DNA of 32,000 bases from an archaeon (GCA_035400625.1 DAOMZT010000001.1:120001-152000), one strand, 5' to 3'; shown: positions 7,544-13,369, numbered from the stretch's first letter. The notes: a model not told the origin generated them from the sequence alone. Numbers and translations: made by a program.

Positions 7544-8806
7544 TTATGCAGAAGGATTAGTTATCCTTCCCATAAACAAAATAGCGCCTGTGCTGTTTTC
7601 TCTTATAAAGAAAATGAACGGATGATCTGCATTAAAGACAAACCCCGCGGATGCCATTCTATCCATCATAACAACAGTTGCAGCTGTAGCTTCTGTGCCT
7701 TGCTCATCAACTTTTATAAAGGCTTTATGTAATATATTTGAAATATATAGATCTTTGGTACCTGTCATCTTTGAGAAATCAGCATTTTCTGTAGAAAAGG
7801 CATTGACCATTCCCAACTCTTTAAGCGGTTCAACAACTCTTGTTGATTTTTCAAACTCTAATTTTGGCAAATATATTTGATCTACTTTAGTTAATCTTAA
7901 GTTTTTTGTCCACTCGTTTAGTTTTTCAAAATCCATATCCTTTTCTAGATTGCTTAAGCCATATTCTTCTTTTGGCAAAAGAACAACCATAGAAAGCTCT
8001 TTGTCTTTATATGGTAATTCCAAAACCTGAAGATTATCATTTTCATAATAATTAAAATTTTCTTTTTTTGGGGCCATAAACATCATTGGAACTTTAATTG
8101 TTCCAGTAGGTGCTTTAAAATCCCTATTTTGTGTATCTTTTTTGTCAAATTCAACTTCCCATTTGCCTTTAAAATAAATTGCATTTGATATTACTAGTCT
8201 TGTTAAAGGGTTTAATTCACCAGAAGGGATAATATTTTTTATTCTGTTATTTGTTTGTTCTTCAATAAATTTGTTGATTGTGTTTCTGGACAATTCTGTT
8301 TCATTTATAAAATCAAGATTAACTGCTTTGCCTCCATAATATTTCTCAACATTTGAAAAATAAGAATCTAGAAATTTATAGTCTTTTTGTGCCCAAAGAG
8401 CATTTCCTGTTCTTAGCTCATATCGCTTATCTTTTTTGTTTATTCTGTTATATAGTTCAGCAAAATTAGGTCTTAAGACTTCATTTTCTGGAAAATAAAA
8501 CACATCTTTCATTTGCTGAGCAGTGGTTCCGTCTGCTCCTTCATAGGTCATGGCCAATGCTGAGAAAATGCTATATGAAGAAAAGAAAATATTGTTGTTT
8601 TCTGTTGTTGCTACTTTTTTGTAAAGGTCAATATTAAATTTGTTATTTGAAATAACAACTTGAGAAAGCCCATCTGGTGTTGAACCTTCTGAATTAACCG
8701 AAGGCGGGCTCGTTGGATTATAGGGCTTTAGAAAAACAACCGCCCCTGCTGTTGCTGCGCCAACAAACAACAATACAAACAATATAATTAATATTTTTTT
8801 ATTCAT
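7544..8806 (-). CDS. serpin (serine protease inhibitor) with N-terminal signal or anchor
   Basis: 420 aa. NIFFSSYSIFSALAMTYEGADGTTAQQM, NAIYFKGKWEVEF, hinge DEQGTEATAATVV, and FNADHPFIFFIRE...ILFMGRITNP are all canonical serpin blocks. AAGGAG SD upstream. Confidence 0.9.
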   Translation of the reverse strand: MNKKILIILFVLLFVGAATAGAVVFLKPYNPTSPPSVNSEGSTPDGLSQVVISNNKFNIDLYKKVATTENNNIFFSSYSIFSALAMTYEGADGTTAQQMKDVFYFPENEVLRPNFAELYNRINKKDKRYELRTGNALWAQKDYKFLDSYFSNVEKYYGGKAVNLDFINETELSRNTINKFIEEQTNNRIKNIIPSGELNPLTRLVISNAIYFKGKWEVEFDKKDTQNRDFKAPTGTIKVPMMFMAPKKENFNYYENDNLQVLELPYKDKELSMVVLLPKEEYGLSNLEKDMDFEKLNEWTKNLRLTKVDQIYLPKLEFEKSTRVVEPLKELGMVNAFSTENADFSKMTGTKDLYISNILHKAFIKVDEQGTEATAATVVMMDRMASAGFVFNADHPFIFFIRENSTGAILFMGRITNPSA

Positions 8807-8912: not shown

Positions 8913-9002
8913 CGCAAGGGATGGGATTTGAACCCATGTGCGTTTTTAAGACGCATCTAGTTTTCGAGACTAGCACCTTCAACCAGACTCAGTCACCCTT
9001 GC
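8913..9002 (-). tRNA. tRNA-Ser (anticodon CGA), class II with long variable arm
   Basis: Minus strand: acceptor GCAAGGG/CCCTTGC plus discriminator G. Anticodon stem CTAGT/ACTAG with loop CTCGAAA. Variable arm TGCGT-CTTAAAA-ACGCA. T arm ATGGG-TTCAAAT-CCCAT. 90 nt, no encoded CCA. Confidence 0.9.
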
Positions 9003-9328
9003 TTATATAATAAATCGTTTATGATCTTTAAAAGATCAGATAACATTTGCTTAGCAATTTTTTCCTGAATAGTGTCCCTTATAATTATCTTTAGAGATGA
9101 AAAAATAGTTATTGTTCCTTTCTTTGTTTTTAGAACTACTAAAAATGGAGAATTGTCTTTTTCTATATAATAATTTTTAGTTCTTATTTTCATTAATAAT
9201 TTTTCAAGATCAATCTTTATCGGTTTTTTTGGATAAAACTCAAAACCTGGCGTGGCTTTACAGCTATCCAAAATAAAAGAATCTACACTTAATGATTTTT
9301 CTTCTTTTTTCTTAAGTAGGTTTAACAT
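8993..9328 (-). CDS. small protein resembling a single TBP-fold repeat, function unknown
   Basis: ORF track starts at a GTG (9337). The first ATG is at 9328 with an AGAGTGA SD-like sequence just upstream, 11 nt after the ATPase stop. IDLEKLL...PFLVVLKTKKGTITIFSSLKIIIRDTIQEKIAKQMLSDLLKII resembles the TBP repeat hallmark (..LIFSSGK[ILMV]V.TGAK.....A...), compared from memory. The last 10 nt overlap tRNA-Ser(CGA). Confidence 0.55.
   Translation of the reverse strand: MLNLLKKKEEKSLSVDSFILDSCKATPGFEFYPKKPIKIDLEKLLMKIRTKNYYIEKDNSPFLVVLKTKKGTITIFSSLKIIIRDTIQEKIAKQMLSDLLKIINDLLYKQG
9026..9034 (-). promoter_or_regulatory. putative TATA box for tRNA-Ser(CGA), embedded in the upstream CDS
   Basis: Minus-strand CTTTTAAAG lies at -24 to -32 from the mature tRNA 5' end. 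tRNA-Ser(UGA) has a similar element at the same spacing. TATA-like strings are common in this AT-rich DNA. Confidence 0.35.
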
Positions 9329-9339
9329 ATATTTCACTC

Positions 9340-11913
9340 TTATGAATCAATGATCTGGCCAATTACAGCATCAACATAAATTTTTCTTTCGTTTGCTCTC
9401 TTGTCTTTGGAGACTATATCCCAAAGAGGCCAGAAGATCTCTGTTATTTCTGTTATCTCTATATCTGGCCATAATTTTTCTAGCCTATTTACAATAATTT
9501 CTTCAGATATTTCTTCTTGAATATCAGATTTGGAAATTAATTGTTTCTTTAATGGCAATTGGTTGATAGAAGTAAGAATTTCATATTCAGGAGCAAAAGG
9601 CAAATCTATTCTTCTCTTTATTCTAAAGCTTTCTTTTTTATTAATAATATCAACATCTGCAAGATTCCTATCAACTAAAGAAATCAAATCTTGTTTTATG
9701 ACCTTTGCATCATTCTCTAGAATCTCTGATAATTCTTGTGCCGTCTTCCATGCATAAATATTATCTAAAAGAACAAGATCATCAACACTTAACTCCTCAA
9801 CAAGCTTAAAGCCATTTGAGGATTTAAAATTTCTGCCATCAAATTGCAAAAACTCTCCAGAAACAGAATCAATAAAACAGGTTGATGGCTTGTAGTTTTC
9901 ATCTTTATCAAAAATATTAAAATTAATCTTGTAAACTTTTCTATAAATCATTGTAATTTGAGAGATAATTTCTTCTTCTTTTAAAAATAAAAATCTTTTT
10001 TTGTTTGTGCTTTTGGCAATATTGATTGCTATGTCTCTTGAGATTCTTGATGTAATTACAGGCACTGTATCAGGTTCTAGGTCTTCAGTAGGTAGTGGCA
10101 TTTCATCTGATGTTTCTGAAAGCTCATTTGACCTTTCAATTGCTTGGTTGATTGTTTGAATTTCTTCTTTTGGGATTTGTGCTTTTTCTCTTTTTGTTTT
10201 TTCTGCAAATAAAAGGACCTTATCTTTTTCTATAACACCCATCTTGCTTAGAGAAACTAAAATCTCATTAAAGGTCACATCACTATTATATTTAGAATTA
10301 ATGACATCTAGAATGTCCTTAGCATCACTTGTTTTTAAGGTTCTTGAAGACAATAACTTTTTGTAAATCATGTCTGAGCAAAAATTAATTATTTCTTTTT
10401 TGGAAAGCTTAGGCACCTCTCTAATTGTCTCTGCATCTCTGCCTTCGTGTTGGCTTAGTCTTGGCTTGATCTTTAAAATAAATGCTCTTTTGGTTTCTTC
10501 GCCTCTGTCTCCAGTTAAAGCAACACCAACAGGAAGAGTCTTAATAAAATTAGGGTCTTTATAGGCATCAGGAATTATAGCTGGCATTCTTTTTTGAACA
10601 GCGTGAATATCATCATTAAAGACTAATTTGTGGCTTATAAAAATATCAACTTGAGATAAAACTTTGGAATTGATTGCTGATGGTTGCTGTGTTGCTAGAA
10701 CCATGGAACAGCCTGGTCTTCTTCCTTGCTTAACATATTCTACGATGGCGTTAGTTGCAGGAGTGATTGTGTTTCCTGAAGGAATCAATGTGTGGGCTTC
10801 ATCTATATACACCCATGTTGGAGGAATAGATATCTCTAATAACTCATCTGGGCTTTCTGAAGCAGAATCTAATTTTTTAATAGCATCTTGTCTTGTCACT
10901 AGCTTTCTTGCTGAAAGTATTCTTCTTGCAAGTATGCCTATGACTAGAGCTGTAATATTATCATCTAAAAAACTAGTATCAAGTATTGTTAATTGCTTTT
11001 CTTTTGATAGCTTTGATAATGGAGTACCATGATCACTGAAAATACCCCATGATTTTGCTGCCTCAAATCTTGAAACTAATGCTCTTATGGAGTCTTGTTT
11101 ATATCCTGAAGAAGAAGATTTAAACTCATAGGCATTTTGCAAACAAAAAATAATATCATCTAGAGTATAGAGATTGCCTTTTGCTGGAATCTGCTCTATT
11201 GTTCTTTCTTGGTCGTTTGGATCTCCTGCCTTGTAACCGTTCTTAACAAAGGACAATGTCTTTTCTAACAGCAAACCTGTTGGATTAAACCTGTCAATTC
11301 CAAAGGTTAGGCACCAATCATCTGTAAGTAGCATAGAAGGATACATAGAAAAAGTTTCATCATATGTTTCTTTAGAAACTTTTCCAGTAACGCCTTCAGG
11401 CACAAAGACTTTTAGGTTGTCTAGACCTCTTGGCTTTTGCCCCCATTTTTCTAATTCTTCTATTTCTTTTTTTTCCTGATTTGGAAATCTCATTGACCAA
11501 AAAACCCCGACTGGATCAACAACTATTTGGCCGATATAAGGGTTATTGGTTGCAAGCTCTTCAGCAATAACACCAAGACCATAGCTTTTACCTGAACCTC
11601 TTGAACCATCAATAAATACGACATGTGGGTTTAAGCCATCTAGATAAACCTTCTTATCTCTTAAGTCATCTTCATAGACCTTACCAAGAAAAGCACAAGA
11701 TTTTGAACCATGTTCTTTTAGAACTGATTTTTTTCTTCCAATATAAACTATTGAATCATCATCAGGATCTGTTAAAAATTCAAGTTTGGGAGTGATCTCT
11801 TTTGAGATATTTGTTTTTTTTGGTTTTTCAGAAGCAGACTCATAGATGCTTTTGTCTTTCTCTATCTTATCAAAAGGATCTGTTCCATCACTTTTTGTTT
11901 TTATGGTAGCCAT
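9340..11913 (-). CDS. HerA/FtsK-superfamily (DUF87-type) P-loop ATPase with a long duplicated C-terminal extension
   Basis: 857 aa. Walker A GSRGSGKS (aa 103-110, nt 11584-11607). Walker B VYIDEAH (aa 368-374, nt 10792-10812). LATQQPSAINSKVLSQVDIFISHKL and KPRLSQHEGR are typical of the HerA/DUF87 core and its C-terminal end. Residues about 500-857 are extra. Confidence 0.85.
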   Translation of the reverse strand: MATIKTKSDGTDPFDKIEKDKSIYESASEKPKKTNISKEITPKLEFLTDPDDDSIVYIGRKKSVLKEHGSKSCAFLGKVYEDDLRDKKVYLDGLNPHVVFIDGSRGSGKSYGLGVIAEELATNNPYIGQIVVDPVGVFWSMRFPNQEKKEIEELEKWGQKPRGLDNLKVFVPEGVTGKVSKETYDETFSMYPSMLLTDDWCLTFGIDRFNPTGLLLEKTLSFVKNGYKAGDPNDQERTIEQIPAKGNLYTLDDIIFCLQNAYEFKSSSSGYKQDSIRALVSRFEAAKSWGIFSDHGTPLSKLSKEKQLTILDTSFLDDNITALVIGILARRILSARKLVTRQDAIKKLDSASESPDELLEISIPPTWVYIDEAHTLIPSGNTITPATNAIVEYVKQGRRPGCSMVLATQQPSAINSKVLSQVDIFISHKLVFNDDIHAVQKRMPAIIPDAYKDPNFIKTLPVGVALTGDRGEETKRAFILKIKPRLSQHEGRDAETIREVPKLSKKEIINFCSDMIYKKLLSSRTLKTSDAKDILDVINSKYNSDVTFNEILVSLSKMGVIEKDKVLLFAEKTKREKAQIPKEEIQTINQAIERSNELSETSDEMPLPTEDLEPDTVPVITSRISRDIAINIAKSTNKKRFLFLKEEEIISQITMIYRKVYKINFNIFDKDENYKPSTCFIDSVSGEFLQFDGRNFKSSNGFKLVEELSVDDLVLLDNIYAWKTAQELSEILENDAKVIKQDLISLVDRNLADVDIINKKESFRIKRRIDLPFAPEYEILTSINQLPLKKQLISKSDIQEEISEEIIVNRLEKLWPDIEITEITEIFWPLWDIVSKDKRANERKIYVDAVIGQIIDS

Positions 11914-11930
11914 AATTTATCAATAATATA

Positions 11931-11939
11931 TTTATATAA
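11931..11939 (-). promoter_or_regulatory. putative TATA box for the HerA-like ATPase (leaderless-type spacing)
   Basis: Minus-strand TTATATAAA at -18 to -26 from the ATG. No SD between it and the start, unlike many neighbouring genes. Confidence 0.3.
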
Positions 11940-11996
11940 GAAACTAAAGAAATATAATATATAAGGATTTTTAAAGATTTTGGATATGTAAAAAGA

Positions 11997-12590
11997 TTAA
12001 TATCTTCTAAGCTTATCTATGCCAAGAGAGATCATTTGCTTATGCATGCTTTCTGTTAGCTCTATGTCTTTTCTTAGATATTTTTCTATTTGTTTTTTGC
12101 CATCGGCCTTGTCCTCTTGAAAACAAAGACGAGAAATGTCTTTTGCTTCATTTTCGTCTAACTCAATCCCCATAGCTCTACCAAAGTCTTTAAGACTGCC
12201 TCTTGTCTTTCCTATTCTAAAAAAAGAAATTAAATCTCTTAGATCAATAATTTCGTTACCAGATATTGGAAGAACACTTACTTTGTTGATAAAACTTCTG
12301 GTGATTAAAAAAGACATATCAAAGCTTAAAATATTAAAGCCAACAATTCTTAGGCTTGTGCCATTTCCTCTTAATTTTGAAATTGTTTGCCACATTTCTT
12401 CTAGAAGTTTTTTTTCATTATCGTCTTGAAGAATGATTGTATCTTTGCTATCAGAGTATTTTAGGCCAATAGCAACAATCCTTGAATCTATTGGATTAAG
12501 CAATTTTAGCTTTGCTTCTTCATCTTCTAAAGACTCATAAAGTTCTTGATCAATTGGGCAAGTTTCAATATCAAGATATAAATAGTTCAT
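11997..12590 (-). CDS. standalone DEDD 3'-5' exonuclease, PolB-exonuclease-like (COG3298/DNA_pol_B_exo2-like)
   Basis: 197 aa. ExoI YLDIETCP (D7, E9), ExoII IVGFNILSFDMSFL (D91), ExoIII EKYLRKDIELT (Y171, D175). No polymerase domain. Confidence 0.75.
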   Translation of the reverse strand: MNYLYLDIETCPIDQELYESLEDEEAKLKLLNPIDSRIVAIGLKYSDSKDTIILQDDNEKKLLEEMWQTISKLRGNGTSLRIVGFNILSFDMSFLITRSFINKVSVLPISGNEIIDLRDLISFFRIGKTRGSLKDFGRAMGIELDENEAKDISRLCFQEDKADGKKQIEKYLRKDIELTESMHKQMISLGIDKLRRY

Positions 12591-12669: not shown

Positions 12670-12900
12670 TTATTTTAGTCTTTGGTTTCTGTAAATTTTA
12701 GCTATTCTTTCCTGAACAAACCCTATTTTGTTTCTTTCAGACATTAGCCTTTCATAGACTTCTTTTGGGACTTTGTGGTATTGGTAAATATAGCCTAATC
12801 TATATTCTATCTCTAATATCTGACTATCAGGATCATAGCCAATTGATACTAAATTTCCTATCAATCTAGAGTCTTTGCCATCTACTGGTTGTCTTTCCAT
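12670..12900 (-). CDS. KTSC domain protein
   Basis: 76 aa. IGYDPDSQILEIEYRLGYIYQYHKVPKEVYERLM matches the KTSC pattern (..y....L.v.F..G..Y.Y..VP..vy..l). GGAGAAGG SD upstream. Confidence 0.75.
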   Translation of the reverse strand: MERQPVDGKDSRLIGNLVSIGYDPDSQILEIEYRLGYIYQYHKVPKEVYERLMSERNKIGFVQERIAKIYRNQRLK

Positions 12901-13048: not shown

Positions 13049-13369
13049 TTATTTTGAGATTTGCCAACTCCACTTTTTAGCATTTAAATCAATATCAAAC
13101 CCAAAAACATCTCTGAATTTATCTTTGTTCTCTATGATTTCTTGCCCTGTTTTTGTAAGGCCAGTTACTACAAACAAATGCAGTCTTTCAATTTTTTCTT
13201 TAGACAAGATAATTTCAATTGCATTAGTTGCCCTTAGATATCTAATTGCCCTTTCTAATCTCCAACTTCCCCATCTTGTTTCTTTAAGTAGATTTTTTGC
13301 AGAAATGGTTTGGTGATGTATTTTAGAGAAATAATGCAGTAATTCTCCTGCATCTTTTTTACTTGTCAT
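13049..13369 (-). CDS. small winged-helix-like protein, function unknown
   Basis: 106 aa with charged, coding-like composition. ISAKNLLKETRWGSWRLERAIRYLRATNAIEII resembles a wHTH. The antisense ORF 12975-13316 has S/L/F-rich noncoding-like composition. Confidence 0.5.
   Translation of the reverse strand: MTSKKDAGELLHYFSKIHHQTISAKNLLKETRWGSWRLERAIRYLRATNAIEIILSKEKIERLHLFVVTGLTKTGQEIIENKDKFRDVFGFDIDLNAKKWSWQISK

Follow-up and report, generated by a model that had tools for sequence, protein, structure and literature searches.

A HerA-clade ATPase of new architecture with a candidate TBP-fold partner in the Iainarchaeota

To our knowledge, HerA-type motors have so far been found paired with nucleases (NurA, DUF4297 and TdpB) or with an NADase (Sir2), in roles in end resection and phage defence. 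In published structures of HerA complexes, the HAS barrel of the motor is the docking site of NurA, Sir2 and DUF4297. Iyer and colleagues are said to have proposed in 2004 that, in archaea, ATPases of the HerA type take the place of FtsK when chromosomes are segregated. The TATA-binding protein (TBP), for its part, consists of two tandem repeats of about 180 aa in total that form a saddle. Monopartite TBP-domain proteins have been described in the Thermococcales, with their function left open (Brindefalk et al. 2013, PMC3597702). Here, we describe a locus in a 32,000-nt stretch of archaeal DNA (GCA_035400625.1 DAOMZT010000001.1:120001-152000; called the window below, at its full length), in which the gene for a HerA-like ATPase is followed by the gene for a small protein that contains only one TBP domain, TBP-mini. 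The ATPase is a HerA-family member whose architecture is new and whose candidate partner is of a new type. The reading that we prefer, with a rough probability of 0.55, is that of a housekeeping, DNA-translocating HerA-clade ATPase with TBP-mini as a candidate subunit, encoded together in a two-gene operon from which a neighbouring exonuclease gene is independent.

The window has a G+C content of about 30%, and the best relatives of its proteins are from DPANN archaea of the Iainarchaeota/Diapherotrites. All features described below are on the minus strand unless otherwise noted. The ATPase gene (9340..11913, 857 aa) stands in the middle of three open reading frames (ORFs). The exonuclease gene (11997..12590, 197 aa) ends 83 nt before the ATPase ATG, and the TBP-mini gene (8993..9328, 111 aa) begins 11 nt after the ATPase stop codon, at an ATG that relatives keep as their start; as opened, this small ORF ran from a GTG at 9337 (8993-9337). 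The original prediction had taken the three ORFs to be one candidate DNA-processing module. The ORFs lie where it had placed them, all of the motifs that it quoted were located, and the profile families agree with its assignments (DUF87 for the ATPase, TBP for the small ORF and RNase_H_2/PolB_exo2 for the exonuclease).

A profile search matched residues 88-332 of the ATPase to Pfam DUF87 (PF01935, 2.6e-10). The Walker A motif, GSRGSGKS, occupies residues 103-110 (11584..11607) and the Walker B motif, VYIDEAH, residues 368-374 (10792..10812), followed by LATQQPS at 406-412 and RLSQHEGR at 485-492. Across 60 members of the family, the Walker motifs (G103, R105, G106, G108, K109 and S110 in Walker A; I370, D371, E372, A373 and H374 in Walker B), the GRRPG...ATQQPS block and the PRxSQHEGR motif were invariant, and the protein is therefore expected, as judged from its sequence, to be an active nucleoside triphosphatase. 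Sequence matches to solved structures spanned only the Walker B-to-sensor region of HerA proteins. An AlphaFold (AF2) model based on an alignment of 60 sequences had a mean predicted local distance difference test score (pLDDT) of 83.7, and when it was compared with the PDB by Foldseek, all 50 listed matches were HerA-family hexameric ATPases (best E 1e-17), including D. radiodurans HerA, SIR2-HerA, DUF4297-HerA and TdpA. By sequence and predicted fold, the protein belongs to the HerA clade of the HerA/FtsK superfamily (DUF87 ATPases). None of the catalytic motifs that mark the hexameric dsDNA translocases of the HerA type is missing from it.

The ATPase is neither a canonical HerA nor an anti-phage HerA. 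Against the curated NCBIfam HerA families it scored 25-39 bits, compared with cut-offs of 800-970 (helicase_HerA, 27.1 vs. 970; HerA_Thermprot, 24.9 vs. 800; HerA_antiphage_2, 39.4 vs. 850). Public records name it merely DUF87 or ATP-binding protein, and a literature search found no paper on the family, on a HerA with PepSY domains or on a HerA with a TBP-fold partner. The scanned genes adjoining the three ORFs included no detectable NurA, Mre11, Rad50, Sir2 or DUF4297. We also assembled 82 non-redundant related loci, in which ORFs were called, profiles built and neighbours clustered; among their recurrent neighbour families, a sample of which was compared with Pfam, no NurA and no mre11/rad50 were recognised. 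One element of the original prediction therefore stands, a HerA-like ATPase with none of the known HerA partners nearby.

Outside the core, the ATPase departs from HerA at both ends. In the AF2 model, about 60 ordered residues precede Walker A (residues ~45-102, forming 3-4 short strands), and no HAS-barrel family was found among the Pfam matches of 18 family members; on this model, an N-terminal HAS barrel seems to be absent. In the N-terminal tail (residues 1-40, 11794-11913), a DxFD motif is almost invariant, and a disordered linker rich in E and K comes after it. This end of the protein is disordered and hydrophilic, and the N-terminal region is ~200-250 residues longer in some relatives. 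Motif and linker resemble a short linear motif carried by a flexible tether.

About 360 residues lie C-terminal to the core; a winged helix and a long helix come first, then two PepSY-like domains with a MarR/TrmB-type winged helix between them. The first winged-helix-like domain (residues ~500-572, 10198..10416), which is basic (pI 9.1), was recognised from the AF2 secondary structure (helices 505-523, 528-542 and 548-557; strands 525-527, 560-563 and 566-569). PepSY-like alpha+beta domain A (residues ~615-700, 9814..10071) matched Pfam PepSY in 10 of 15 family members, at best with 4.4e-10, and the MarR/TrmB-type winged helix (residues ~701-770, 9604..9813) matched TrmB in 7 of 15 and, in PDB profile searches, ZitR/AdcR (1e-4). 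PepSY-like alpha+beta domain B (residues ~778-857, 9343..9582) was delimited by the AF2 model, the Pfam matches of family members and an hhalign comparison with domain A, of which it is an internal duplication (hhalign probability 95%, E 2.7e-8). PepSY domains are usually extracytoplasmic. A PepSY-like pair flanking a MarR-type winged helix is an unusual arrangement for a cytoplasmic ATPase.

The product of the small ORF matched the Pfam TBP family (PF00352) at 2e-5, with 24.8 bits against a gathering score of 22.9, and its AF2 model had a pLDDT of 89. Most of the 50 listed Foldseek matches to this model, including the top nine, corresponded to one TBP repeat, with a query-normalised TM-score (TMq) of ~0.55 and a probability of ~1.0, at E values of merely 0.03-0.2; the N-domain of RNase H3 appeared lower in the list. 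TBP-mini has the TBP-domain fold, as a single repeat of 111 aa, and scored 18 bits against the 181 required by the NCBIfam TBP model (NF001593). An exhaustive profile search returned 68 cluster representatives, which were standalone proteins of 87-124 aa with the exception of two true TBPs at the weak end; in none of the 68 was TBP-mini fused to an ATPase. An extra N-terminal beta-hairpin carries the invariant motif DSCKATPGFEF, and the proteins are usually basic, with a median pI of 8.95. TBP-mini appears to be confined to Diapherotrites-like genomes, where its distant relatives are named only 'Diapherotrites' or 'hypothetical' or bear automatic labels such as TBP, RNase HIII and ArsR-type. 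Homology between TBP-mini and the PepSY-like domains of the ATPase was also considered and rejected (hhalign probability <1%).

To measure the linkage of the two genes, we used the 76 loci with at least 400 nt of sequence downstream of the ATPase. TBP-mini followed the ATPase directly, on the same strand, in 23 of these, with gaps of -68 to +58 nt between the ORFs as called. The 23 loci comprise the whole window clade and Forterrea and also include five distant lineages (L003, L025, L066, L075 and L081; 44-48% ATPase identity) that have no other neighbour in common with the window clade. At seven further loci, TBP-mini lay 3.8-5.9 kb downstream, mostly beyond a convergent glmU/glmM/glmS cassette. 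Overall, roughly half of the phylum has the two genes separated. In the reciprocal test, which started from TBP-mini in 39 metagenome loci, the ATPase was directly upstream in 36, the sequence was too short in two, and the ATPase was lacking in one. In the window, the gap between the ATPase stop codon and TBP-mini contains a Shine-Dalgarno (SD)-like GAGTGA and no T-tract. The very short gaps, the SD-like motif, the absence of a T-tract and an adjacency that persists even where no other neighbour is shared all favour a functional pair. The two genes are probably co-transcribed, as had been suggested for a small TBP-fold ORF so close behind the ATPase. Separately, we noted that the glmU/glmM/glmS cassette stands directly after the ATPase in many Iainarchaeota (L004, L024, L026, L048, L049, L062, L067 and others) and is often followed by a gene with helix-turn-helix and S_layer_C domains.

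The protein database contained 699 relatives of the ATPase, and the 120 listed had 44-100% identity over nearly full-length alignments; identity over the full length was 44-89% for listed homologs. When one genome per species was scanned, relatives were found in at least 219 species-representative genomes; among the best 80 of the 219, the labels were almost all Iainarchaeum, Diapherotrites or Forterrea, and a few were bacterial. Three contigs with the ATPase (L031, L037 and L069) are filed under metagenome-assembled genomes of Chloroflexi, Falkowbacteria and Peregrinibacteria, and the bacterially labelled contigs are probably mis-binned archaeal ones. The window flanks encode a serpin, YdjM, UppP/BacA, thioredoxin, a nucleoside phosphorylase, MscL, MscS, a tRNA-binding protein and CTP synthase, and the flanking housekeeping gene order recurs in relatives. 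Two scans of viral contigs yielded no usable relative of the ATPase, the single match being a 38-residue P-loop (L126). A mobile or viral origin was rejected on this null result. Together, the distribution, the housekeeping flanks and the viral null fit a chromosomal gene of the lineage rather than part of a defence island or a mobile element, and we infer that the ATPase is chromosomal, vertically inherited and housekeeping.

We propose that the locus holds two independent units, an ATPase/TBP-mini operon that would be expressed from its own upstream element, and a separate exonuclease gene. The ATPase ring would translocate or remodel double-stranded DNA, and the winged helix-turn-helix (wHTH) domains and the mostly basic TBP-mini would serve in the recognition, bending or loading of DNA or as adaptors. 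The role would be one in housekeeping chromosome maintenance, such as repair or segregation, and not in defence.

Several observations weigh against this reading. At 27 loci where the sequence downstream of the ATPase extends for at least 5.5 kb, no TBP-mini was in view. Distant TBP-mini homologs adjoin genes for a DUF4013 protein and an M50 peptidase and lack an ATPase within 8 kb, so that the adjacency may be what is left of an ancestral order of genes. The Forterrea TBP-mini is acidic (pI 5.4), as is the second wHTH of the window ATPase (pI 4.7); given such acidic examples, DNA binding by TBP-mini and by the second wHTH is not assured. DNA translocation is argued from family membership only, the vertical inheritance and housekeeping nature of the ATPase from its distribution and context, and the absence of a HAS barrel from a predicted model and a Pfam null.

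The first of these observations lead to an alternative in which the ATPase acts alone or with unlinked partners and TBP-mini, with a role of its own, stands beside it by inherited gene order. TBP-mini is followed by DUF4013 and the M50 peptidase with no ATPase nearby in L129 and L130, and the same two genes follow TBP-mini, beside or beyond the ATPase, in L025, L062, L067 and L078. The simplest history is an ancestral order of ATPase, TBP-mini, DUF4013 and M50 that was eroded differently in each lineage. The 27 loci with full flanks and no TBP-mini, and the lack of fusions among the 68 representatives, are consistent with this account as well. It is harder to reconcile with the very short gaps, the shared strand and the SD-like motif, with adjacency where all other neighbours differ, and with the 36 of 39 loci in the reciprocal test. 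We consider inherited gene order a possible but doubtful explanation, and retain the functional pair of ATPase and TBP-mini as the preferred one.

The pair might, by analogy, be an FtsK-like chromosome pump of the Iainarchaeota, a suggestion that we regard as speculative and unlikely. In such a pump, the DxFD motif and the variable E/K-rich linker would tie the HerA-type motor to a partner in division or segregation, with the C-terminal wHTH domains as the readers of DNA and TBP-mini to bend or load it.

Also unlikely is that the ATPase does not act on chromosomal DNA, but serves secretion, conjugation or DNA uptake, like VirB4/CedB, or remodels protein or RNA. The HerA/FtsK superfamily includes such ATPases, weak Zot and FtsK_SpoIIIE matches were found, and PepSY-like domains are usually not DNA-binding. 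However, the 82 related loci have no recurrent membrane-protein partner, including membrane-channel partners of the VirB4/CedB type, every one of the 50 listed structural matches is a DNA translocase of the HerA family, and the wHTH domains and the TBP fold fit nucleic-acid work.

According to the original prediction, the exonuclease may be part of a three-gene module for end resection, uptake or defence, in which a DEDD nuclease replaces NurA. The protein is a standalone DEDDy 3'-5' exonuclease (PF13482/PF10108, YprB/COG3298-like), with matches to Pfam RNase_H_2 (PF13482, 9e-6, 26.2 bits vs. 22) and, just below the threshold, to PolB_exo2 (PF10108, 9e-5, 22.7 vs. 24). Its homologs carry PF13482 and, in most of those listed, PF10108, and are named 'YprB with RNaseH-like domain'. 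The motifs DIET (7-10), SFD (89-91) and YLRKD (171-175) provide the DEDDy residues D7, E9, D91, Y171 and D175, which were invariant in 20 homologs. The family is broadly distributed in DPANN and is common in Diapherotrites, Woesearchaeota and Nanoarchaeia. The three genes are co-directional and close together in the window, in L007 and L021 and in L087, the ~99% identical contig ERZ795051 NODE-9, and in the distant L049 (44% ATPase identity) the exonuclease lies 1.3 kb upstream of the ATPase. However, of 56 loci only 5 have the exonuclease in the 6 kb upstream of the ATPase, and the genes in between vary, also in close relatives: an 839-aa gene in L005, a KTSC gene and a 242-aa gene in L009, and, on the opposite strand, a 381-aa gene in L049. 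In two other genomes, the homologs of the exonuclease lack a HerA-like neighbour. A T5 tract comes after the stop codon of the exonuclease, and an upstream element of its own precedes the ATPase gene. The three-gene module is largely refuted by this synteny and was rejected on the transcription signals as well, and we consider it very unlikely. The exonuclease is a separate gene, judged to lie outside the module, and an ordinary PF10108/YprB-like family member whose adjacency to the ATPase is recent, local synteny.

The upstream element of the ATPase gene is a conserved 29-nt sequence, ATCTTTAAAAATCCTTATATATTATATTT (11950..11978), which spans positions -37 to -65 relative to the ATPase. It recurs with 0-5 mismatches in L005, L006, L007, L009, L010 and L021, irrespective of the gene upstream, and is unique in the window. 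Within it lies TTTAAAAA, which resembles a transcription factor B recognition element and TATA box (BRE/TATA), and no regulator of the element was identified. We read ATCTTTAAAAATCCTTATATATTATATTT as the probable promoter or operator of the ATPase operon, and as a promoter it would give a leader of ~30 nt and not a leaderless mRNA. Leaderless transcription from a more proximal TATA-like box, originally predicted from the spacing, is not supported, since the conserved element points to a promoter further upstream and TATA-like strings are common in DNA of 30% GC.

The least probable explanation, and to us a far-fetched one, is the originally suggested role in anti-phage defence, like that of SIR2-HerA or DUF4297-HerA with a novel effector: partial PADLOC HerA matches (best 4e-18), a mad8 match (2.6e-16) and the 39 bits for HerA_antiphage_2 speak for it, but these matches are confined to the Walker B/sensor region and lie far below the cut-offs (39 vs. 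850 bits), PADLOC, NCBIfam and PHROGs gave partial core matches only, with no PADLOC match for the neighbours, there is neither island context nor an enzymatic effector domain, and the ATPase is strongly conserved in at least 219 genomes, in a housekeeping context and with a null result in viral contigs.

Other features of the locus and its relatives were recorded in the course of the analysis. A tRNA-Ser(CGA) gene (8913..9002) follows TBP-mini, and its 5' end overlaps the final 10 nt of the small ORF (8993-9002), covering codons KQG-stop. The overlap is kept in nine loci (L005, L006, L007, L009, L010, L013, L021, L087 and L088), and the tRNA could share a transcript with the ATPase operon. 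Three tRNA-Ser isoacceptors (CGA, GGA and UGA) and a tRNA-Gly(CCC) are found within 13 kb, all on the minus strand. The tRNA was also considered as an integration scar, which was ruled out by the synteny of the flanks in relatives. The serpin gene (7544-8806), located between the tRNA and conserved downstream genes, is full length (Pfam 2.8e-120) and encodes an N-terminal hydrophobic segment. Among the related loci, only L009 and L021 have a serpin homolog at this position, and it looks like a lineage-specific insertion.

On the other side of the ATPase, a gene for a 76-aa KTSC-domain protein (12670-12900, 1e-16) has a clear GGAGAAGG Shine-Dalgarno motif. The protein also matches the phage family phrog_3292 (8e-9), and the gene is found near the exonuclease in L007, L009 and L010, in varying order. 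A 106-aa ORF at 13049-13369 has no family match and is conserved in L007 and L009 (49-67% identity). In a Diapherotrites locus, a 714-aa gene with a weak DNA_pol_B match (L085:10391-12535, minus strand) lies 4 kb from an exonuclease homolog, which leads one to ask whether, in these archaea, a PolB that lacks an exonuclease is complemented by the standalone PolB-type enzyme. At eight loci only, among them L030, L057, L060, L068 and L074 of one sub-clade, an SMC-like gene (SMC_N, 4e-26) is located ~3.8 kb downstream of the ATPase. A 279-aa gene and the genes for ribosomal protein L44e and a membrane protein lie in between, in divergent orientations. A link to Rad50 through this gene (f15) was set aside, its N-terminal motif being SMC-like and its match to the Rad50 zinc hook weak (0.004).

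If the ATPase and TBP-mini work together, TBP-mini would be a new type of HerA partner, and the pair would point to a core machine for DNA handling that is specific to this lineage, in a DPANN phylum with poorly characterised DNA repair and segregation machinery. It would also place monopartite TBP-domain proteins, the role of which has been open since 2013 (PMC3597702), in a functional context for the first time. If they do not work together, what remains is a conserved hypothetical ATPase beside ordinary genes. Should the chromosome-pump suggestion prove true, the pair would be the first concrete candidate for the proposal that HerA replaces FtsK.

Among the described systems, the exonuclease is closest to the standalone PolB-type exonucleases of PF10108/PF13482 (COG3298, YprB-like), with the same size and DEDDy motifs and no notable difference. 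The ATPase shares with canonical archaeal HerA, encoded in the herA-mre11-rad50-nurA operon, a RecA-like core with the DUF87 helical insertion, Walker A and B, the GR(K/R)xG...(S/T)Q(R/Q)PS block and the C-terminal R..HxG motif; structurally, it is matched best by T. kodakarensis HerA-NurA (9x1m, E 1e-17) and S. solfataricus HerA (4d2i, with a target-normalised TM-score, TMt, of 0.58-0.60). It differs in having 13-20% identity to these proteins, no HAS-barrel match, the ~360-aa extension of wHTH and PepSY-like domains and no adjoining NurA, Mre11 or Rad50. With the anti-phage systems SIR2-HerA (Nezha), DUF4297-HerA and TdpAB it has in common a structurally matching core and a gene order in which the ATPase stands beside a small non-ATPase partner, whereas its own candidate partner has a TBP fold and no recognisable catalytic motif, and its family occurs widely within one phylum, has a housekeeping context and scores far below the equivalog cut-offs. 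The layout of FtsK/SpoIIIE is analogous, with an N-terminal tether, a variable low-complexity linker, a hexameric motor of the same superfamily and a C-terminal winged helix, but this is an analogy that implies no homology of the accessory parts. Unlike FtsK/SpoIIIE, the window ATPase has no transmembrane segments, and its core is HerA-like rather than of the FtsK alpha/beta type, PF01580 matching weakly (0.0078) and in 3 of 18 members. Finally, TBP-mini resembles the TBP-like N-domain of RNase HIII (DUF3378) and, by description alone, the monopartite proteins of the Thermococcales (PMC3597702), all of them with one TBP repeat in ~90-110 aa and with a function that is either unknown or one of substrate binding, and is set apart from both by its extra N-terminal beta-hairpin with the DSCKATPGFEF motif.

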